Below, piece by piece: positions 1,630-37,626 of a stretch of DNA of 39,625 bases; position 1 is the stretch's first letter; every line of letters begins with the position of its first letter. Source of the DNA: Escherichia phage nasanit. Both the position numbers and the translations under genes were made by a program. The notes under the pieces were generated by a model, which had not been told where the DNA came from, made no database searches, and saw only the letters and a list, made by a program, of their open reading frames with translations. Where the stretch lies: the sequence record PV245933.1; one strand, written 5' to 3'.

Positions 1630-3387
1630 ATGTCTACTCAAGCAAACAAGAATGCGCTCATCGTGGCGCAACTTAAGGGTGACTTCGTGGCCTTCCTGTT
1701 CGTCTTATGGAAGGCTCTGAACTTACCTAAACCAACCAAGTGTCAGATTGATATGGCACGTACACTCGCTAATGGCGACCACAAGAAGTTTATCCTACAG
1801 GCGTTCCGTGGTATCGGCAAGTCCTTTATCACCTGTGCGTTCGTCGTGTGGGTCTTATGGCGTGACCCTCAACTTAAGGTGCTCATCGTGTCTGCCTCTA
1901 AGGAACGTGCTGATGCTAACTCCATCTTCATCAAGAACATCATCGACCTCCTTCCGTTCCTCTCTGAGTTGAAACCTCGACCGGGACAGCGAGACTCCGT
2001 GATTAGCTTCGACGTTGGCTTGGCGAAACCAGACCACTCACCCTCTGTGAAGTCTGTAGGCATTACTGGTCAGTTGACTGGTAGCCGTGCTGACATTATC
2101 ATCGCAGATGACGTTGAGGTTCCCGGCAACAGTTCTACAAGCTCTGCTCGTGAGAAGCTGTGGACACTGGTAACTGAGTTTGCTGCGTTACTTAAGCCGT
2201 TACCTACCTCTCGTGTTATCTACCTTGGGACACCTCAAACCGAGATGACTCTCTATAAGGAACTTGAGGATAACAAAGGGTACAGCACGGTAATCTGGCC
2301 AGCACAGTATCCACGTAATGATGCTGAGGCTCTCTACTATGGGGACCGCTTGGCTCCGATGCTTAAGGCTGAATACGATGAGGGCTATGAGTTACTTCGT
2401 GGTCAACCTACTGACCCTGTTCGATTCGATATGGATGACCTCCGTGAACGTGAACTCGAATATGGCAAAGCTGGCTACACTCTTCAGTTCATGCTTAACC
2501 CGAACCTTAGTGATGCCGAGAAGTACCCGCTACGGCTCCGTGACGCTATCGTGTGCGCTGTGGACCCCGAACGTGCCCCATTGTCTTACCAGTGGTTGCC
2601 GAACCGTCAGAACCGCAATGAGGAACTCCCTAACGTTGGTCTTAAGGGTGATGACATCCATGCGTTCCATACGTGCTCTTCTCGTACCGCTGAGTATCAG
2701 TCTAAGATTCTGGTCATTGACCCAAGTGGTCGTGGTAAGGATGAGACCGGGTACGCAGTCCTCTACTCACTTAACGGTTATATCTACTTGATGGAAGTCG
2801 GTGGGTTCCGTGGTGGTTACGATGATGCTACCCTAGAGAAGCTCGCTAAGAAGGCCAAGCAGTGGAAGGTACAGACAGTCGTCCATGAGTCCAACTTCGG
2901 TGACGGTATGTTCGGTAAGATTTTCTCTCCGATTCTCCTGAAGCACCATAAGTGTGCCTTAGAGGAAATCCGTGCTAAGGGCATGAAGGAGATGCGAATC
3001 TGCGATACTATCGAACCGTTGATGGGTGCGCACAAGCTGGTAATTCGTGATGAGGTTATTCGTGAGGACTACCAGACTGCTCGTGACCTTGATGGGAAAC
3101 ATGATGTTCGCTATAGTGCGTTCTATCAGATGACCCGTATGACCCGTGAGCGAGGCGCTGTGGCACACGATGACCGACTTGATGCTATCGCATTGGGTAT
3201 CGAATGGCTACGCGAGGGGATGCTTGTAGACAGCCGTGTAGGTGAAGAAGAGATGACCCTTGAGTTCCTTGAACACCACATGGAGAAACAGACCATTGGT
3301 GGCGACCAGATTCATAGCTATGATGTAGGAGGTGTGGACATCTACTATGAGGACGATGGGGACTCTAGCAGCTTCATTGAGTGGTAA
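1630..3387 (+). CDS. 19: Terminase large subunit (DNA maturation protein B), gp19
   Basis: 585 aa; Walker A-like AFRGIGKSF; strong overall similarity to T7 gp19 (T7 is 586 aa). Confidence 0.95.
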
Positions 3388-3476
3388 TATAGATAAGTAT
3401 GCGGGAAAGGTGCATAGGTAAGCACTTAGTACCGCTACGTTACCGTTAAGTAACTTACTGATATACATGAAGAAAT

Positions 3477-3499
3477 TAATACGACTCACTATTGGGAAG
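3477..3499 (+). promoter_or_regulatory. Phage RNAP promoter (phiOR position)
   Basis: TAATACGACTCACTATTGGGAAG; matches T7 promoter core except T at -1. Confidence 0.8.
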
Positions 3500-3655
3500 G
3501 GCACCCTAAGACAACTTAAAGACACTTAAAGACTGCATATGCAAAGTGCATACTTAGTGACTACTCTTAGAGACCCTTACAGTGTGGGATGATAGTAATT
3601 GTAATTACATCCCTACTATCAGTGTAACCATCAAGTATAACAAGGAGGACGCTCT

Positions 3656-3811
3656 ATGCGCTTACTATCCGTGCTCAAGACACTGGCAACGCATCGAGTG
3701 ACCTACAAATTTCTCGCTGTACTTGCTGCTTCCATCGGTCTCGCATCTAGTGTTGAACACATCGGTGAACTGGAGACTCTGCTTTGTTCTCTACTCACTT
3801 GTGTTCCTTAG
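3656..3811 (+). CDS. 19.5: gp19.5-like small protein (51 aa)
   Basis: ORF MRLLSVLKTLATHRVTYKF... with AAGGAGG SD; last gene before genome right end as in T7. Confidence 0.6.
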   Translation: MRLLSVLKTLATHRVTYKFLAVLAASIGLASSVEHIGELETLLCSLLTCVP

Positions 3812-3839
3812 ACTGCTCGTTGGCGCTTAACGCGCTCTT

Positions 3840-3877
3840 AGTGATTATGGTCGATATACATCTTCCCTATAATCACT
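3840..3877. repeat. Inverted repeat (9-bp arms AGTGATTAT / ATAATCACT) near genome right end
   Basis: Perfect 9-bp arms separated by 20 nt, read directly from sequence. Confidence 0.5.
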
Positions 3878-4084
3878 GTAAGAAGTCAACTCTAAGAGGT
3901 AGCCTTATGTATTCCTTAACGGTCTACAGGGTCTCTTAGGGTCTCTCACGTGGTCTAACCTTATGATAGCCACTCCAAGGATAACCTTATGAGAGACTTG
4001 ATGTACCCCTTTAAGAATCCTACAGAAAAATCTGAGTGGGTATCTCATAGTTCATACCAAGTGGTTTCCCCCTGTAGGTAACTC

Positions 4085-4187
4085 TGTGGATAACCTGAGG
4101 ATAACTCTGTGGATAACTTGTGGATAACTCTAGGTTAGAGGCTGTGTGGATAACTTTGGGTGAGACTGTTAGTAACTCTGTGGATAA
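4085..4187 (+). repeat. Array of five perfect TGTGGATAA 9-mers (complement TTATCCACA = consensus DnaA box) plus one imperfect copy
   Basis: Perfect copies at 4085, 4108, 4119, 4145, 4179; TGAGGATAA at 4096; all in the same orientation. Confidence 0.6.
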
Positions 4188-4207
4188 CTCTGTGTCTCTG
4201 TGTCCCT

Positions 4208-4214
4208 ATCTGTA
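4208..4214 (+). promoter_or_regulatory. Candidate phage-RNAP pause site (concatemer-junction type), ATCTGTA
   Basis: CCCTATCTGTAAG resembles the T7 class II pause/termination signal ATCTGTT at the T7 concatemer junction; one mismatch. Confidence 0.3.
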
Positions 4215-4366
4215 AGTGACCTTTGAGTTATCACCTTATGTTATCACCTTATGACCCTTTAAGTATCACCTTATGGCTGGTTATCCTTATGTTAACCTTC
4301 AGTCGGTGCCTTCAGTCCATAGACCTATCGTTGCCACTCTTAGACCAGCCTTAAATACCATACAGC

Positions 4367-4389
4367 TAATATGACTCACTATTGAGGAA
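4367..4389 (+). promoter_or_regulatory. Phage RNAP promoter (phiOL position), variant
   Basis: TAATATGACTCACTATTGAGGAA; degenerate relative to the other copies. Confidence 0.65.
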
Positions 4390-4472
4390 TAGCTAATACT
4401 GGTCATCTTCCTTATAGGGATAACTTAAAGACTACTAAAAGAGATACTTTGAGAATTCTTTAAGATTGAGTA

Positions 4473-4501
4473 TTGACATTGATAATAGCTTATGAGACTA
4501 T
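4473..4501 (+). promoter_or_regulatory. Sigma70-type early promoter (A1-like)
   Basis: TTGACA, 17-nt spacer, GACTAT. Confidence 0.5.
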
Positions 4502-4607
4502 AGCAACCGTTGAGAGACACAACGCTACCAACCACTAGACAAGACCGAGAGTTATCTAGTGAGGCTGAAGAGTCTCAAGTAGTCATCAACCAGACACACG
4601 AAAGTGG

Positions 4608-4636
4608 TTGACTCAACGAAAGCAATAACGTAGTAT
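4608..4636 (+). promoter_or_regulatory. Sigma70-type early promoter (additional)
   Basis: TTGACT, 17-nt spacer, TAGTAT. Confidence 0.45.
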
Positions 4637-4697
4637 AGCAGTCGTCAACAACTGGTCGCCCTCTGAAACAACATGAGGTGTCACGGTGAGAAAGGTG

Positions 4698-4727
4698 TTG
4701 ACAAGCAGTAAAGATAAGATGTAAGAT
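4698..4727 (+). promoter_or_regulatory. Sigma70-type early promoter (A2-like)
   Basis: TTGACA, 18-nt spacer, TAAGAT. Confidence 0.55.
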
Positions 4728-4857
4728 GTACGACATGCAATAAGAGAGAACGGATAGGAACTGCGAAACCTGCCGGATACTCGCCAAGGATGAGGCACTG
4801 CTTATTGGAGTATGCAGACACGATAAGCACCACGTTATCTTCTAGTCAAATTAAGTG

Positions 4858-4886
4858 TTGACACGGTAACGAAAGCACGATAAGAT
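4858..4886 (+). promoter_or_regulatory. Sigma70-type early promoter (A3-like)
   Basis: TTGACA, 17-nt spacer, TAAGAT; downstream sequence GTACCAC..AGTGAGTCACCACACTGAAAGGTGATGCGGTCTAACGAAACCTGACC resembles T7 A3 region. Confidence 0.55.
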
Positions 4887-5004
4887 GTACCACGAAATGA
4901 CGGAACAGTGAGTCACCACACTGAAAGGTGATGCGGTCTAACGAAACCTGACCAAAGACGCTCTTTAACAATCTGGATAATAGCTCTTGAGTGTACCGTA
5001 TAAG

Positions 5005-5050
5005 CGAATAACTCAAGGTCGCACTGAAAGCGTGGCCTTTATGATATTCA
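5005..5050 (+). promoter_or_regulatory. Conserved processing hairpin (RNase III site-like, R0.3 position)
   Basis: ATAACTCAAGGTCGCACTGAAAGCGTGGCCTTTATGATATTCA. Confidence 0.45.
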
Positions 5051-5079
5051 CTTAACGAACTAACATGAGGTAACACCTA

Positions 5080-5538
5080 ATGATTTTCACTAAAGAGCCT
5101 GCTAATGTCTTCTATGTACTGGTGTCAGCTTTCCGTTCCAACCTCGACGATGAGGTGAATATGAGTCGTCACCGCCACATGGTAAGCACTTTACGTGCCG
5201 CACCGGGTCTTTATGGCTCCGTTGAGTCAACCGATTTGACCGGGTGCTATCGTGAGGCAATCGCAAGCGCACCGACTGAGGAAAAAACGGTTCGTGTACG
5301 CTGCAAGGACAAGGCGCAGGCACTCAATGTTGCACGCTTAGCTTGCAATGAGTGGGAGCAAGATTGCGTACTGGTATACAAATCACAGACTCACACGGCT
5401 GGTCTGGTGTACGCTAAAGGAATCGACGGTTACAAGGCTGAACGTCTGCCGGGTAGCTTCCAAGAAGTGCCTAAAGGCGCACCGCTTCAAGGTTGCTTTA
5501 CGATTGATGAGTTCGGTCGCCGCTGGCAAGTACAGTAA
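5080..5538 (+). CDS. 0.3: S-adenosylmethionine-cleaving enzyme (T3 gene 0.3-type SAM hydrolase/lyase), anti-restriction
   Basis: 152 aa starting MIFTKEPANVFYVLVSAF; matches my recollection of T3 gp0.3 (152 aa), not T7 Ocr (117 aa, acidic). Confidence 0.8.
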   Translation: MIFTKEPANVFYVLVSAFRSNLDDEVNMSRHRHMVSTLRAAPGLYGSVESTDLTGCYREAIASAPTEEKTVRVRCKDKAQALNVARLACNEWEQDCVLVYKSQTHTAGLVYAKGIDGYKAERLPGSFQEVPKGAPLQGCFTIDEFGRRWQVQ

Positions 5539-20718: not shown

Positions 20719-21021
20719 ATGGCTATTACTAAACGTTTTAAAGTATCATTCGAAGTCACCGCTGTAATTGATAGCGAGTCTGAGAACAACCTGAATGATT
20801 TACTCGTAGACATCGCTAAGAAAGCTGCCACTGGTGAGGAACTTAACCCGTTTAAACGTGAGTTGCTAGTTCAAGGTCTAACCTATGGACCAGAAGGTGC
20901 TGCCGCATTCTGTATCAAGCAGGGTCTTCGCAATTTTATTCGTGAGGGCCACGGCGAACTGAGTTCAACCGAGCGAAAGCTCATGCGATTCTCTCCAGCT
21001 ACTATTCGTGAGGTGAAGTAA
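20719..21021 (+). CDS. 5.5: gp5.5-like protein (100 aa)
   Basis: Starts MAITKRFKVSFEVTAVIDSE; position and size as T7 gp5.5. Confidence 0.65.
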   Translation: MAITKRFKVSFEVTAVIDSESENNLNDLLVDIAKKAATGEELNPFKRELLVQGLTYGPEGAAAFCIKQGLRNFIREGHGELSSTERKLMRFSPATIREVK

Positions 21022-21230
21022 TGGGTGATTATCTACGTGTACTGGCGGCTATCAAAAGCTGCCCCAAGACCTTTCAGTCGAACTATGTGCGCAACAATGC
21101 GTCACTGGTGGCTGAGGCTGCGAGTCGTGGTCATATCTCTTGCCTATCAGTCGATGGGCGTAATGCTGGCGCTTGGGAAGTAACAGGCGCTGGTGTCCGA
21201 TTCCTGAAGAAGATGGGAGGTTGCGTATGA
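21021..21230 (+). CDS. 5.7: gp5.7-like protein (69 aa)
   Basis: Same size as T7 gp5.7; start overlaps 5.5 stop; stop overlaps gene 6 start. Confidence 0.65.
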   Translation: MGDYLRVLAAIKSCPKTFQSNYVRNNASLVAEAASRGHISCLSVDGRNAGAWEVTGAGVRFLKKMGGCV

Positions 21231-22141
21231 GCGCAATTACACTGAAGGAGTTCTACGAGTTACGCCAAGGGAAATCCGATAAGGGTGTTCTCGTAATGGA
21301 TGGTGACTGGCTGGTATTCCAAGCGATGGCAGCAAGCGAAGTCGAGACCGATTGGGGTGACGATGTGTGGACCTTAGAGTGTGACCACGGGAAAGCGTGG
21401 AACATTCTGGTTGACTCTATCAAGTCCTATGCGAGTCGTAAGAAGGCTTGGCGTGATGCACCTATCGTACTGGCCTTCACGGACGCTGTGAACTGGCGTA
21501 AGGAACTAGTGGACCCAACCTATAAGGAGAACCGTAAGGCATCCCGTAAGCCTGTAGGATACCGTGCGTTCGTCGAGCGTGTTCAAGCATGTGAGGACTG
21601 GATGTCTATCCTTGAAGACCGACTTGAGGGTGATGACGTAATGGGAATCATTGGGTCTGGTGCTAAACATTTTGGTTTCAAGAAGGCTGTACTGGTCTCC
21701 TGTGATAAGGACTTTAAGACCATCCCTGATTGTGACTTCTTGTGGTGCACGACTGGTAACATCTTGACTCAAGACCAGACTACTGCTGACTACTGGCACA
21801 TCTATCAGACCATTAAAGGTGACTTGACGGATGGTTATGGTGGCATTCCGGGCTGGGGCGAGACTACCGCTGAGTGGCTGGAGAACCCGTATGCCTTTGA
21901 ACAGGTTGAGAAAACTTTCAAGTCTGGTGCCCGTAAGGGACAGACAGTTCTCGAATGGAAAAAGGTTGACATGGGTGAGCGAACCCTATGGGAAGCCATT
22001 GTGACACTTGGTGCAAAAGCTGGGATGACCGAAGAGGAAATCATTAAGCAAGGCCAGATGGCTCGTATACTTCGATTCGAAGAGTACAACTTTATCGACA
22101 AGGAGATTTACCTATGGTCGCCGGAACAGTTGCGTTCGTAA
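21227..22141 (+). CDS. 6: 5'-3' exonuclease, gp6
   Basis: 304 aa from MSAITLKEFYELRQGKSDKGVLVMDGDWLVFQAM; T7 gp6 pattern. Confidence 0.93.
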   Translation: MSAITLKEFYELRQGKSDKGVLVMDGDWLVFQAMAASEVETDWGDDVWTLECDHGKAWNILVDSIKSYASRKKAWRDAPIVLAFTDAVNWRKELVDPTYKENRKASRKPVGYRAFVERVQACEDWMSILEDRLEGDDVMGIIGSGAKHFGFKKAVLVSCDKDFKTIPDCDFLWCTTGNILTQDQTTADYWHIYQTIKGDLTDGYGGIPGWGETTAEWLENPYAFEQVEKTFKSGARKGQTVLEWKKVDMGERTLWEAIVTLGAKAGMTEEEIIKQGQMARILRFEEYNFIDKEIYLWSPEQLRS

Positions 22142-33678: not shown

Positions 33679-36600
33679 GTGGATAAGTATAACCCGAACG
33701 AACCGCATGAATATGATGCGTTATTTCAACAAGCTGCTGACACACATGGAGTCTCCTATGGCCTTCTTCGGAAGGTCGGTTGGGTAGAGTCCCGCTTTAA
33801 ACCTACGGCTCAATCACCAACAGGGCCGAGAGGTGTCATGCAGTTCACTAAGGCAACTGGTCAGGCTTATGGTCTCCAGAACGATGAGGACTTCACTGAC
33901 CCGGCTAAGTCCATTGATGCAGGTGCTCGTTACCTCGCAGACCTCGTTAAGAAGTACGATGGCGATGAACTTAAAGCTGCCCTAGCGTACAACCAAGGTG
34001 AAGGGCGTAATGGTAAGCCACAACTGGAAGCCTACGATTCTGGTAACTTTGCTGGCATCGGTGATGAAGGTCGTAACTATCTGCGTTCACTTCTGGATGT
34101 CGCTAAGTCTCCTAAGAGTGGGGACATTGAGTCATTCGGAGGTATCACCCCAAAGGCTAAAGGGATTCCGTTTGATGCTGCGATGAGTGGTATCGGGAAG
34201 AAAGGAAAGGTAACAACTGAACTCCCTGAGTCTCACGAAATGTCCTTTCAAGGTAAAGAACAGGCCGCTCCCAATCAGCCGTTCGGAAAAGATTATTGGG
34301 AAGCCAAAGGTACAACTCTTGACGAAGCAAACGAGCGTTCAACCTTCTTCGGATTTGGTAATGCTGCCGAAGCAGAACTCTCTAACTCAACCTTGGGTGT
34401 TGCCTTCCGTGCTGGTAAGCGTGACAATGGTTTCGATGTTCTTACTGACGTACTTCAGCCGACACGGTTTAATAGCCACATTTGGTCGCCTGAAGAACTC
34501 GAAAAGATTCGCAACGAAGTGAAGAACCCTGCGTACATGAACGTTGTACTTGGTGGTTCCGCTGAGAACCTTGACGAGCTAATCAAGTTAGCCAATGAGA
34601 ACTTCGAGTTGGACTCTAAGGCCGCTGATGCTGGACTTGGTGCAAAACTATCTGCTGGGATTATTGGTGCTGGTGTGGACCCTCTGACCTACGTTCCAAT
34701 CGCTGGGTCTGCGGCTAAGGGATTCAAACTGGTGAACAAGGCGTTGATGGTGGGTGCTCAAGCTGGTGCACTTAACGTTGCCTCCGAGGGTCTGCGTACA
34801 TCCGTTGCTGGTGGTGATGCTCACTATGCGGAAGCTGCTCTTGCTGGTATGCTGCTTGCTGGGGGACTCACTGCGGTTGCTGATGGTGTTGCTGCTGGTC
34901 TCCGTAAGTCTGGTGCTGAACAGATTGAGAACCCGTTTGCTGCTGCGCAGATGCGTTTTGAGGCTCGTGAGACTGCCCGTAACACTGGTGGATATGATGC
35001 AAGTCGTATGCCTCCGAGTGAAGACCGAGTGTTCTCACAGCACAACGGCGTTGAGTATGCACCTCTCGAAACTGAACCGGGTGCGGTAGTTCTGAAGGAC
35101 GGCTCAATCATTAGTGATACCAACTTGGCTAACCCAATGACTGCCAAAGAGTTTGCCGAAGTAGACCCTGAACGTGCTGCATGGGGCTTGCCTATGCGTG
35201 GCCTGAGTGAAATCGGTTTGAGAACTCTACGTTCTGAACATGCAGAAATCCGTGGACTAGCTAAGGACTTAGTGCGCTCACCTACAGGTATGGAGTCTGG
35301 CTCACATGGTAAGTTTGGGGCTACCGCCTCAGACATCAAAGAGCGCCTACACAGTAACAACCAGCGAACCTACAATGACCTCTATGGTGCAATGAAGGAA
35401 GCTATGGCTGACCCTGAGTGGTCTGTGGGTATGTTCAAGCAGGGTGCCCAAGGTGCTCGTCAGGAAATCTATCGTCGTGTTGCAATCGCTATTGAGCGTC
35501 CAGAACTTCAGGCCAACTTAACGAAGGCTGAACGTAAGGTAATGGACATCATGAAGGAACATTTCGACCTCAAGCGTGAGATGATGGAGAACCCGTCGAT
35601 GTTCGGCAACAAGGCAACTTCCATCTTCCCTAACAGTCGTCACAAAGGGACTTACGTTCCTCATGTGTACTCACGGGAAGCCAAGCAGTTGTACTCACAG
35701 GCTCTCGGTGGCTCTGATGGTTTACAGGAAGCAATCGCTGCAAGCTGGATGACCTCTTACCGTTCACGTCCAGAAGTTAAGACTCGTGTGGATGAGCATT
35801 TAGCGGAGACATTAGGTATCGACCCTAAAGCTGTTACCGAAGAGATGGTGATGAAACATGCCAGCGACAAGGCTTATGGTATTGCGAAGACAGATGAGTT
35901 CAACTCTTCAAGTGTCATCGACGATAACATTGAGGGTCTGGTAGGGATTGAGAATAACTCGTTCCTTGAAGCCCGTAACCTGTTCGATTCTGACATGCCA
36001 GTCACGCTCCCGAATGGACAACAGTTCTCTGTGAATGACCTCCGAGACTTCGATATGAAGCATGTGATGCCAGCATATGACCGCCGTGTTGACGGTGATA
36101 TTGCTATCATGGGTGGTACAGGAAAGACGACTGCTGAACTCAAGGATTACATTATGGCTCTCGATAAGAAGTCTGAAGGTAAAGGCACAATGAAAGGTGA
36201 AGTGGAAGCACTCAAGGATACCGTTAAGATTCTCACAGGCCGTGCTCGACGCAATCAGGATACTATGGGTGACACTATGGTCCGCGCTATGTCCGATATG
36301 TCCTTCTTTACGAAGAACGCATATATGGGCTTGCAGAACCTAACTGAAATCTCTGGTCTCTTGGCGAAAGGTAACACCCGTGCGATGCTTCATGGCATTC
36401 CCGCTCTGCGTGACCTAGCATTCCGCAACAAGCCAGTGTCCGGTAAGGAACTTAAGGAACTACACTCTATGGTGTTCGGTAAAGAGTTCGATGACTTAAT
36501 TAGACCGACCCGTCAGGACATCATTCAGCGACTCCGTGAATCTACGGATACACCTGATGTTGCCGCTAAGGTTGTTGGTACGGTTAAGCACACCACTCAA

Positions 36601-37626
36601 GAGTTGGCTGCTCGCTCTCCGTTCACTAAGTTCCTCAATGGTACTTCCAACTACATTCTGGACATGGCCCGTCAAGGTGTCATGGGAGATGTGGTAACTC
36701 ATGCCATTACTGGTAAGGGTGCCAACAAGTGGATTAAAGGAGACATGCTGAAATCTGCGAGTATCTCTAAGGAACAATGGGAAGGCATTCAGAACCTCAT
36801 CCGCGAGAACGTCACTCAAGGCGCTGACGGCAAGTACACCTTCAAGGACAAGCGCAAGCTGGCTAATGACCCTCGTGCTATGGACTTGTGGCGCTTAGCT
36901 GATAAGGTTGCCGATGAGACAATGCTGAGACCTCACAAGGTTTCACTTCAGGATTCCCATGCGTTTGGTGCTGCTGCCAAGCTGGTGCTTCAGTTTAAGT
37001 CGTTTGTCATCAAGTCGATGAACTCTAAGTTTATCCGCTCTGGTCACGAGGCTATGAAGAATCACCGAGCTATGGACATGGCGCTGACCTACGCAATCTC
37101 TGGAGGTATCGCTGGTTCCTACTACGTGGCACAGGCCCACTTGAAGGCTGCTGGTCTACCTAAAGAGCAACAGAAGGACTACTTGAAGAAAGCTCTGGAC
37201 CCTAAGATGATTGCCTATGCTGCTGCGTCCCGAAGTTCACACTTAGGTTCCCCGTTGAGTATCGCAAACTTCGCTATGGGTGCTGCTGGTTACGACCAAG
37301 GTCTCATGGTCCGCTCTACTATTCTCCCGAAAGGTGAGGACAAGCGGGAACGGAATAAGGCGGTAACTTCCCGTGACATGAGTGAATCCATTATGGGTGC
37401 TATTGGTGAACAGGTTCCTGCTCTTGGCTTCGCGGGTGCTGCTCTAGCTACTGGTCGAAATGCTTATGGTGTCCTTACGGCTCCAAACAAAGTGACCGAG
37501 CGTGAGATGATGACTGGCTTAATGAACGCCCACCGAGAGATGATTCCTAACGACCCAATCTCTCAACAGATGCTCATTAAGTTCTATGAGGCCAACGGTG
37601 TTCACATTAAGGCTGACAAGAAGTAA
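33679..37626 (+). CDS. 16: Internal virion protein D with N-terminal lytic transglycosylase domain, gp16
   Basis: 1315 aa; apparent GTG start after AGGAGG SD; SLT-like motif GWVESRF..GVMQFTKATG..AYNQGEG. Confidence 0.95.
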   Translation: MDKYNPNEPHEYDALFQQAADTHGVSYGLLRKVGWVESRFKPTAQSPTGPRGVMQFTKATGQAYGLQNDEDFTDPAKSIDAGARYLADLVKKYDGDELKAALAYNQGEGRNGKPQLEAYDSGNFAGIGDEGRNYLRSLLDVAKSPKSGDIESFGGITPKAKGIPFDAAMSGIGKKGKVTTELPESHEMSFQGKEQAAPNQPFGKDYWEAKGTTLDEANERSTFFGFGNAAEAELSNSTLGVAFRAGKRDNGFDVLTDVLQPTRFNSHIWSPEELEKIRNEVKNPAYMNVVLGGSAENLDELIKLANENFELDSKAADAGLGAKLSAGIIGAGVDPLTYVPIAGSAAKGFKLVNKALMVGAQAGALNVASEGLRTSVAGGDAHYAEAALAGMLLAGGLTAVADGVAAGLRKSGAEQIENPFAAAQMRFEARETARNTGGYDASRMPPSEDRVFSQHNGVEYAPLETEPGAVVLKDGSIISDTNLANPMTAKEFAEVDPERAAWGLPMRGLSEIGLRTLRSEHAEIRGLAKDLVRSPTGMESGSHGKFGATASDIKERLHSNNQRTYNDLYGAMKEAMADPEWSVGMFKQGAQGARQEIYRRVAIAIERPELQANLTKAERKVMDIMKEHFDLKREMMENPSMFGNKATSIFPNSRHKGTYVPHVYSREAKQLYSQALGGSDGLQEAIAASWMTSYRSRPEVKTRVDEHLAETLGIDPKAVTEEMVMKHASDKAYGIAKTDEFNSSSVIDDNIEGLVGIENNSFLEARNLFDSDMPVTLPNGQQFSVNDLRDFDMKHVMPAYDRRVDGDIAIMGGTGKTTAELKDYIMALDKKSEGKGTMKGEVEALKDTVKILTGRARRNQDTMGDTMVRAMSDMSFFTKNAYMGLQNLTEISGLLAKGNTRAMLHGIPALRDLAFRNKPVSGKELKELHSMVFGKEFDDLIRPTRQDIIQRLRESTDTPDVAAKVVGTVKHTTQELAARSPFTKFLNGTSNYILDMARQGVMGDVVTHAITGKGANKWIKGDMLKSASISKEQWEGIQNLIRENVTQGADGKYTFKDKRKLANDPRAMDLWRLADKVADETMLRPHKVSLQDSHAFGAAAKLVLQFKSFVIKSMNSKFIRSGHEAMKNHRAMDMALTYAISGGIAGSYYVAQAHLKAAGLPKEQQKDYLKKALDPKMIAYAAASRSSHLGSPLSIANFAMGAAGYDQGLMVRSTILPKGEDKRERNKAVTSRDMSESIMGAIGEQVPALGFAGAALATGRNAYGVLTAPNKVTEREMMTGLMNAHREMIPNDPISQQMLIKFYEANGVHIKADKK

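Follow-up and report, generated by a model that had tools for sequence, protein, structure and literature searches.

A candidate host-DnaA site cluster in the terminal repeat of the T7-like Escherichia phage nasanit

Introduction

The DNA analysed here is a 39,625-bp stretch from Escherichia phage nasanit (sequence record PV245933.1; the whole stretch is called the window), and its subject is an array of putative binding sites for the host replication initiator DnaA. The array, at 4073–4187, fills most of the phage terminal repeat (TR) at 4043–4207. On chromosomes and plasmids, clusters of DnaA boxes are a well-understood kind of element. Phages of the T7 group, by contrast, bring their own machinery for replication, transcription and packaging. 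No description of DnaA boxes in the TRs of T7-like or other Autographiviridae phages was found in the open-access literature, a scope outside which older T7 literature and book chapters lie. The array puts an element of a known kind in a new setting, and it recurs across Autographiviridae TRs.

Results

The terminal repeat and its box array

The phage is T7-like and belongs to the genus Berlinvirus, and the window is its genome in circularly permuted form. All long open reading frames (ORFs) lie on the + strand in T7 order, and the 13-kb stretch from the RNA polymerase (RNAP) gene to the DNA polymerase gene is 95% identical to that of phage 285P and 92–95% identical to those of BA14, PZJ0206, P483 and others. 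The two terminase subunits, gp18 (244–513) and gp19 (1630–3387), were identified with Pfam. The TRs of BA14, T7 and T3 start with TCTCA(T/C)AG and finish with TGTGTCCCT; those of T7 and T3 are 160 and 231 bp long, and the BA14 record annotates a TR at 1–194 and a concatemer junction at 193–200. These landmarks recur in the window at 4043–4050 (left) and 4199–4207 (right) and, because they are homologous to the BA14, T7 and T3 ends, they delimit a single collapsed TR copy of 165 bp (4043–4207) with TCTCATAG at its left end and TGTGTCCCT at its right end. In the Ship_A7 record the TR is present at both ends. The initial annotation had placed the array in a putative terminal repeat, and the homology bears out that location.

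The left TR block (4043–4072, + strand; TCTCATAGTTCATAC...TTTCCCCC) carries the genome left terminus and is common to all Berlinvirus relatives, with an array or with none. The right boundary (4199–4213, + strand) is TGTGTCCCT followed by ATCTGT(A); its conservation and the BA14 junction annotation identify this as the place where T7 has its class II pause/termination signal, ATCTGTT. ATCTGT was kept at this place in every relative examined, namely T7, T3, the Berlinviruses, phiEap-1, NJ2, Kp175002 and Kp7. By homology, then, the features of a T7-group TR are all there: the termini, the ATCTGT signal, flanking heptamer arrays, and phage promoters at the phiOR and phiOL positions.

Between these ends, the 9-mer TGTGGATAA, the complement of the DnaA box TTATCCACA, occurs five times without mismatch (4085–4093, 4108–4116, 4119–4127, 4145–4153 and 4179–4187), always on the + strand, and a one-mismatch copy, TGAGGATAA, lies on the same strand at 4096–4104. 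The motif search thereby reproduced the positions behind the earlier description of five perfect consensus boxes and a sixth one-mismatch copy, in a single orientation within about 100 bp. The copies at 4085 and 4096 are each followed by C. No further perfect copy was found on either strand of the window, for which a uniform model predicts ~0.3 copies in all; copies with at most one mismatch number 17, versus 9.5 ± 3.0 in shuffled sequences. Sequence reading and alignment of relatives revealed two additional degenerate units in register, both on the + strand. The unit at 4073–4081 is TGTAGGTAA, with two mismatches, and reads TGTGGGTAA in P483, Ship_A7 and SEqdws-315; the decayed unit at 4167–4175 is TGTTAGTAA, with three mismatches, and reads TGTGGGTAA in Ship_A7 and SEqdws-315 and TGTTGGTAA in P483.

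The units of the left cluster (4085, 4096, 4108 and 4119) share one orientation and are separated by gaps of 2, 3 and 2 bp; 4167 and 4179 are 3 bp apart. This arrangement, with sites in the same orientation and ~2 bp between them, is the one expected of a cooperatively filled DnaA array. In oriC, sites in one orientation and 2 bp apart line up the bound DnaA along a single face of the helix, and filling progresses cooperatively from a strong site; consensus DnaA sites have Kd values of 4–20 nM (PMC4451416).

The conserved unit is the DnaA box

Since tandem repeats arise through duplication, five copies in 103 bp are not in themselves the test. The evidence that counts is that the conserved unit is exactly the DnaA box, and that the same box occurs in differently built cassettes of other phages. 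To define the unit we compiled a sequence logo from 43 units within two mismatches of the core, taken from the TRs of six phages; the core columns of this logo were ascertained by the search, whereas the flanks and the tenth base were not. The conserved block was the 10-mer TGTGGATAAC, with C at the tenth position in 43/43 units, and information content dropped sharply on either side of it. TGTGGATAAC is also the sequence of E. coli oriC boxes R1 and R4 including their flanking C: in MG1655 oriC, R1 is cCTGTGGATAACa and R4, on the other strand, is aCTGTGGATAACTCTG. The 11-mer common to R1 and R4, CTGTGGATAAC, is present in three array copies, and the perfect box at 4179–4187 with its flanks (CTGTGGATAACTCTG, 4178–4192, + strand) is identical over 15 nt to R4 on the other strand.

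Variation among the Berlinviruses that carry the array told the same story. The right part of the array is collinear in the four carriers (the window, P483, Ship_A7 and SEqdws-315), and its three perfect boxes had 0/27 variable columns compared with 11/63 of the non-box columns (Fisher p=0.015, in a small sample of four phages); the boxes at 4119–4127 and 4145–4153 are invariant in 4/4 carriers. The left cluster differs among the four by whole units of 11–12 bp, with 3 to 6 copies. In both the logo and the comparison of boxes with spacers, conservation was confined to the box and did not follow a longer or shifted unit.

With several 9-mers that match TTATNCACA, including the high-affinity TTATCCACA (five perfect and one with a single mismatch in 103 bp), the array is, by every sequence criterion tested, a member of the DnaA-box cluster class. 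Relative to oriC, it has an identical 10-mer and a similar layout, with head-to-tail sites in one orientation, 2–3 bp gaps, and strong sites beside weaker ones, as in cooperative oligomer growth (PMC4451416). The consensus boxes, five in 103 bp, are far denser than those of oriC, which has two perfect copies of TTATCCACA. Unlike oriC, the array lacks a DNA unwinding element (DUE), sites for IHF and Fis, clustered GATC and a second array facing the first, and it is situated at the end of a linear phage genome rather than in a chromosomal origin. Judged by its sequence, it is a better DnaA platform than oriC itself.

Carriers and non-carriers among close relatives

The ends of Berlinvirus TRs are conserved and their interiors are replaced. 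The same array is carried by P483, Shigella phage Ship_A7 (at both record ends) and SEqdws-315; it is missing from most Berlinviruses. A search of IMG/VR with an exact 25-mer spanning box and spacer matched the P483 and Ship_A7 genomes only. The TRs of BA14, 285P, Kvp1, D226, ErnstBeyeler, CarlSpitteler, S523, PZJ0206, P694, Berlin, T7 and T3 contain no DnaA box within one mismatch. The initial annotation had contrasted the array with unrelated short repeats in the T7 terminal repeat, correctly in that T7 has no such boxes, and the comparison extends the point to T3. The TRs of T7, T3, BA14 and Kvp1 otherwise resemble that of the window, in the left TCTCA(T/C)AG, the C-tract, the variable interior, the right boundary of TGTGTCCCT plus ATCTGT, the flanking heptamer repeats, and phiOR and phiOL on either side; the difference lies in the interior, where the window has the box array instead.

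If a phage protein recognised the repeat, the two should co-vary. When 60 ORFs of the window were compared by tblastn with four array-plus and two array-minus genomes, no gene tracked the array. Among carriers (P483, Ship_A7, SEqdws-315) and non-carriers (285P, PZJ0206) alike, gp18 is 98–100% identical to that of the window (100% in 285P), gp19 98–99% and the RNAP 98–100%. Because no gene follows the array and the terminases are near-identical, a phage-encoded protein that recognizes the unit is unlikely, and recombination inside the TR must be what moved the cassette. The sequences are those of an optional, horizontally exchanged cassette in a variable TR interior, and the absence of arrays from near-identical sister phages points to an optional docking site for a host protein.

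Arrays in other phages and viruses

The same 10-mer occurs in differently organized TR interiors of other lineages. The TR of Enterobacter phage phiEap-1 (Eapunavirus) contains T7-type CTTnAGGTG units and, interleaved with them at a spacing of ~22 bp, five perfect boxes; that of NJ2 has three perfect boxes and three TGTGGGTAA units. In the TR-like region at 60–190 of Klebsiella phage 175002 (Przondovirus), two TTATCCACA copies face three TGTGGGTAA units and one TGTGGATAA; this convergent layout is reminiscent of R1 versus R4 in oriC. Klebsiella phages Kp7 and ZK1, of the subfamily Molineuxvirinae, have 5–6 perfect boxes in their TR. The array was actually read at the left end of Kp7, where the boxes lie at nt 63–240 of the record, and BLAST matches at two places in each of the Kp7 and ZK1 records correspond to both ends; ~20 similar Klebsiella and Proteus records were found by BLAST. 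The Kp7 and ZK1 arrays (within 1–260 of either record) stop just before a TATCTGT motif that resembles the T7-group junction signal. The distance from the last box to ATCTGT (16–22 nt in five lineages) might be taken for a functional spacing; it was rejected as evidence because any array that abuts the conserved 20-nt TR end block will trivially show such a distance.

Beyond these phages, head-to-tail arrays of 3–8 perfect TGTGGATAA(C) units at 11–12 bp were found in at least 120 viral loci of IMG/VR, on contigs of very different GC content, and perfect-box arrays at 11–12 bp also occur in many bacterial genomes. Among the IMG/VR matches listed, several arrays are located 40–200 bp from the end of contigs of 36–40 kb, beside G or C tracts. 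In an environmental group of Autographiviridae whose terminase is ~50% identical, two or three box clusters are located between the terminase and RNAP genes (IMG/VR loci L021, 9340–9680, and L067, 6870–7260). These arrays have the opposite orientation to that of the window and flank strong sigma70 promoters; a near-consensus sigma70 promoter (TTGACA-17-TATACT) lies ~25 nt upstream of the start of one cluster, a position that suggests early transcription under DnaA control. Bajarodmic virus 162 (Microviridae) has five perfect TGTGGATAA copies at 11–12 bp directly after its replication-initiator gene (601–655). A very AT-rich stretch follows this array, and further Microviridae matches are alike. 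By its sequence, the Microviridae array looks like a DnaA-dependent origin or priming site; nothing relevant on DnaA boxes in Microviridae was found in the open-access literature. Arrays of unrelated viruses have only the host factor in common.

Surroundings of the array and other features of the genome

The TR is flanked on its left by CCTTATG short repeats (3900–3995, + strand, from sequence reading), the counterpart of the T7 CCTAAAG arrays, and on its right by (T)ATCACCTTATG short repeats (4226–4297, + strand, likewise from sequence reading). A phage-RNAP promoter at the phiOR position (3477–3499, + strand; ACTCACTAT core at 3484) precedes gene 19.5 (3656–3811), and another at the phiOL position (4367–4389, + strand) was assigned from the promoter core and the BA14 annotation. 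The only AT-rich stretch nearby (4400–4480, 72–75% AT) comes after phiOL. Three sigma70-type early promoters at 4608–4886 (+ strand), equivalents of A1–A3, were predicted in agreement with the BA14 and T3 annotations.

The junction signal at 4208–4214 is ATCTGTA in this phage and most Berlinviruses, and ATCTGTT in T7, T3, phiEap-1 and NJ2. The core sequence of the T7 class II pause/termination signal is ATCTGTT, and any change in this 7-mer is reported to abolish class II termination by T7 RNAP (bioRxiv 10.1101/2021.01.11.426313). Given this strict requirement, either the RNAP of the present phage has another one or its pause is weaker.

A coding or structured-RNA role for the TR was rejected: only ORFs of 21–47 amino acids overlap it, none has 50 or more, TAA occurs in all + frames, and 3400–5100 gave zero Rfam matches. 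Prediction likewise gave no host promoter or terminator inside the TR, such as a T3-like leftward A0. GenBank records draw hypothetical proteins across the TR or array (SEqdws-315, 1–330; BA14, 258–575); these ORFs are unconserved and probably spurious. Such annotation matters in practice, as gene callers place spurious ORFs over the arrays; assemblers can collapse the arrays because they are tandem repeats inside TRs.

A trade-off between the array and the RecBCD inhibitor gp5.9 was also considered. A gp5.9 homologue was missing in 5/5 array-plus genomes examined, but 285P and most close relatives also do without gp5.9, which is patchy across the group, so that the comparison is uninformative. 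In the window no homologue is present between genes 5.7 and 6 (21021–22141), where PZJ0206 has one. A 185-amino-acid ORF with no Pfam match (1057–1614, between genes 18.5 and 19) is found in the window, P483, 285P and PZJ0206 and is missing from Ship_A7, SEqdws-315 and phiEap-1. The gp16 ejection protein (33679–37626) appears to be mosaic, as it aligns over ~54% of its length to those of P483, Ship_A7 and PZJ0206, whose genes are 500–1000 nt longer. GATC occurs three times in the whole window versus ~155 times expected from its length, which indicates strong avoidance of Dam/MboI-type sites.

Discussion

The initial annotation had set a DnaA-binding array against a phage-specific repeat that matches the DnaA consensus by coincidence, and had listed functions that such an array could serve (recruitment or titration of DnaA; effects on DNA entry, end replication or concatemer processing). 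Of these functions, the present analysis weighs against a replication origin and against titration early in infection; the others are candidates. The DnaA side of the alternative is favoured, because the information in the repeat ends exactly at the edges of TGTGGATAAC, because the boxes are spaced and oriented as in arrays that DnaA fills cooperatively, because no gene of the phage varies together with the array and carriers and non-carriers have terminase subunits that are 98–100% identical, and because TR cassettes from other genera and from a second subfamily contain the same 10-mer. On these sequence grounds the array is a genuine DnaA-box cluster, and it is probable that DnaA, in the ATP or ADP form and at physiological concentrations on the strong boxes, would occupy it, with the weak units filled cooperatively.

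Among known systems, the boxes in the TR of T5-like phages are the closest phage precedent. They lie, conserved, in the injection-stop (iss) region of that TR (bioRxiv 10.1101/866236); those of T5 go back to Heusterspreute 1987, as cited in Davison 2020 (bioRxiv 10.1101/866236), and membrane-bound DnaA has been proposed, as a hypothesis only, to arrest DNA entry (bioRxiv 10.1101/866236). In both cases consensus or near-consensus boxes, with neighbours 3 bp apart in the T5 pairs, lie in a non-coding part of the TR of a virulent coliphage whose replication is DnaA-independent. The differences are considerable, however. The eight boxes of T5 form pairs within large inverted repeats, are several kb away from the end of a repeat of 10 kb and are present in all relatives, whereas the array is direct, has its boxes 40–145 bp from the end of a 165-bp repeat and is present in some relatives only; in place of pairs straddling IRC/IRD, only imperfect inverted arms of 10–24 nt were found. 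The datA, DARS and mioC regions resemble the array as non-origin box clusters that bind several monomers and that titrate DnaA when present in plasmid copies (PMC5835720). Unlike the array, which is a simple direct repeat, datA and DARS need a specific box geometry; datA requires an IHF-binding site between its essential boxes (PMC5835720), and the array contains no IHF consensus.

The best overall explanation, held with slightly more belief than doubt, is that the array is a genuine cluster of host-DnaA sites, an optional TR cassette with a role in cis at the genome end or junction. Entry into the cell starts with the left TR, whose terminus is 30 bp away from the start of the array; in concatemers, 20 bp separate the end of the array from the conserved pause site downstream. 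DnaA would load on the left end at cell entry, and on every concatemer junction, and would spread head-to-tail over ~115 of the 165 bp of the TR. The resulting complex would be a cis-acting nucleoprotein, supplied by the host, that gives the genome end and junction their architecture or protects them. The DNA that enters first may be held or shaped by it close to the pool of membrane-associated DnaA; it may also, or instead, shape the TR immediately upstream of the pause site while ends are processed and DNA is packaged. Relatives that have no array have phased short repeats at the same place in the TR, and these sister phages may do the same job with repeats of their own. On this reading the array would be neither a replication origin nor a trans-acting DnaA sink, and it would be dispensable for the basic life cycle. 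Granted that DnaA binds, an architectural or protective role in cis has a little less than an even chance.

Several points weigh against this explanation. For all these phages, DnaA binding is deduced from sequence, and the cis role is indicated weakly, by elimination and analogy. The closest relatives grow on the same hosts with no array, so that its benefit would be non-essential and could be nil. The Studiervirinae TR arrays that can be aligned by BLAST may share one origin spread by recombination, and are accordingly not fully independent replicates; those of the environmental Autographiviridae are reversed and flank early promoters, so that arrays may serve different purposes. Finally, these TRs commonly contain TGTGGGTAA units, for which weak DnaA binding is predicted; such units may be a sign that the repeat is phage-specific.

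The same observations bear on other explanations. The amplified TR copies, numbering hundreds, might act in trans as a DnaA sink that blocks host re-initiation and derepresses DnaA-controlled genes, to the advantage of the phage. The five consensus boxes per TR exceed those of oriC or of datA, which has two consensus and four one-misfit boxes, and plasmid-borne boxes do titrate DnaA, of which there are ~200 monomers per origin, in vivo (PMC5835720). With ~6–8 sites per TR, at least 100 genome copies would exceed the DnaA pool, and an action independent of orientation would suit the reversed arrays of the environmental Autographiviridae. A single infecting genome, however, adds only ~10–16 sites, too few early in infection, so that a sink is quantitatively possible only late. 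By the time T7-like phages reach a high copy number, they have shut down host transcription and are breaking down the chromosome, which renders host initiation and derepression moot; nor does a sink explain why the arrays of four or five lineages are placed specifically in the TR. We consider it unlikely. Much the same probability attaches to a tandem repeat with no function, which DnaA may bind but which is neutral filler, or a mildly selfish repeat, spread via the conserved TR ends. This is a serious alternative because near-identical phages do without the array: sister phages with 92–95% identical genomes have none. Copy number drifts by whole units, some units (4096 and 4167) have decayed, and TR interiors in general are hypervariable short-repeat DNA. 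Against neutrality, perfect boxes are kept in differently organized cassettes across several genera and two subfamilies, the three right-hand boxes are free of substitutions while their spacers vary, and the chance that a random unit would match the 9-mer consensus is ~1 in 10^4 per repeat family.

The coincidence mentioned above, in which the repeat is bound by a phage protein (e.g., gp18 or another end-processing factor) or is intrinsically bent DNA, would fit the phased short repeats of 10–12 bp that all T7-group TRs hold, and the variants TGTGGGTAAC, GGATACC and GGGGATGACC seen in relatives including T7 and T3. It is improbable, given that gp18 and gp19 are 100% and 99% identical to those of 285P, whose TR has no such unit, that no ORF co-varies, that the same 10-mer is present in phages with distantly related proteins and in Microviridae, and that the conserved block stops exactly at the DnaA box and its flank. 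An auxiliary DnaA-dependent replication origin, in which an oligomer on the TR would open the DNA and load helicase for an end-proximal start beside phiOL, has slightly less to recommend it. The array does resemble the part of oriC on which DnaA assembles, T7 has phiOL as a secondary origin, phiOL and an AT-rich tract lie ~180–290 bp to the right of the array, and the similar microvirus array directly precedes an AT-rich stretch. But no AT-rich unwinding element adjoins the array (4040–4300 is 50–62% AT throughout), and the phage has an RNAP-primed, helicase-primase replication system of its own, 98–100% identical to that of siblings with no array. Neither the IHF consensus WATCAANNNNTTR nor GATC was found in 3801–4500, and the origin reading is weakened by the want of a DUE, an IHF consensus and GATC beside the array. 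The origins P1 oriR, pSC101 and F oriS show that mobile elements can recruit the host initiator with clustered consensus DnaA boxes; there, iterons, an AT-rich region and a gene for Rep accompany the boxes, all of which are missing here.

The explanation by a host-DnaA cluster acting in cis gives a concrete and cheap handle on the role of the TR interior, and on the use of DnaA at the DNA ends of virulent phages, as proposed for the T5 injection stop. Natural array-plus and array-minus pairs that grow on E. coli K-12 are available, namely SEqdws-315 or P483 versus 285P and the BASEL phages. More speculatively, and on present evidence doubtfully, T7-like phages may repeatedly recruit DnaA to their TRs in cis for an end-specific step, either anchoring or protecting the DNA that enters first or organizing the junction, beside the RNAP pause site, for end duplication and packaging. 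The TR arrays of Berlinvirus, Eapunavirus, Przondovirus and Molineuxvirinae phages and the boxes of T5-like phages may then represent one general and so far unrecognized strategy. If true, it would mean that T7-like phages, a model of independence from host replication proteins, use the host initiator at their ends.

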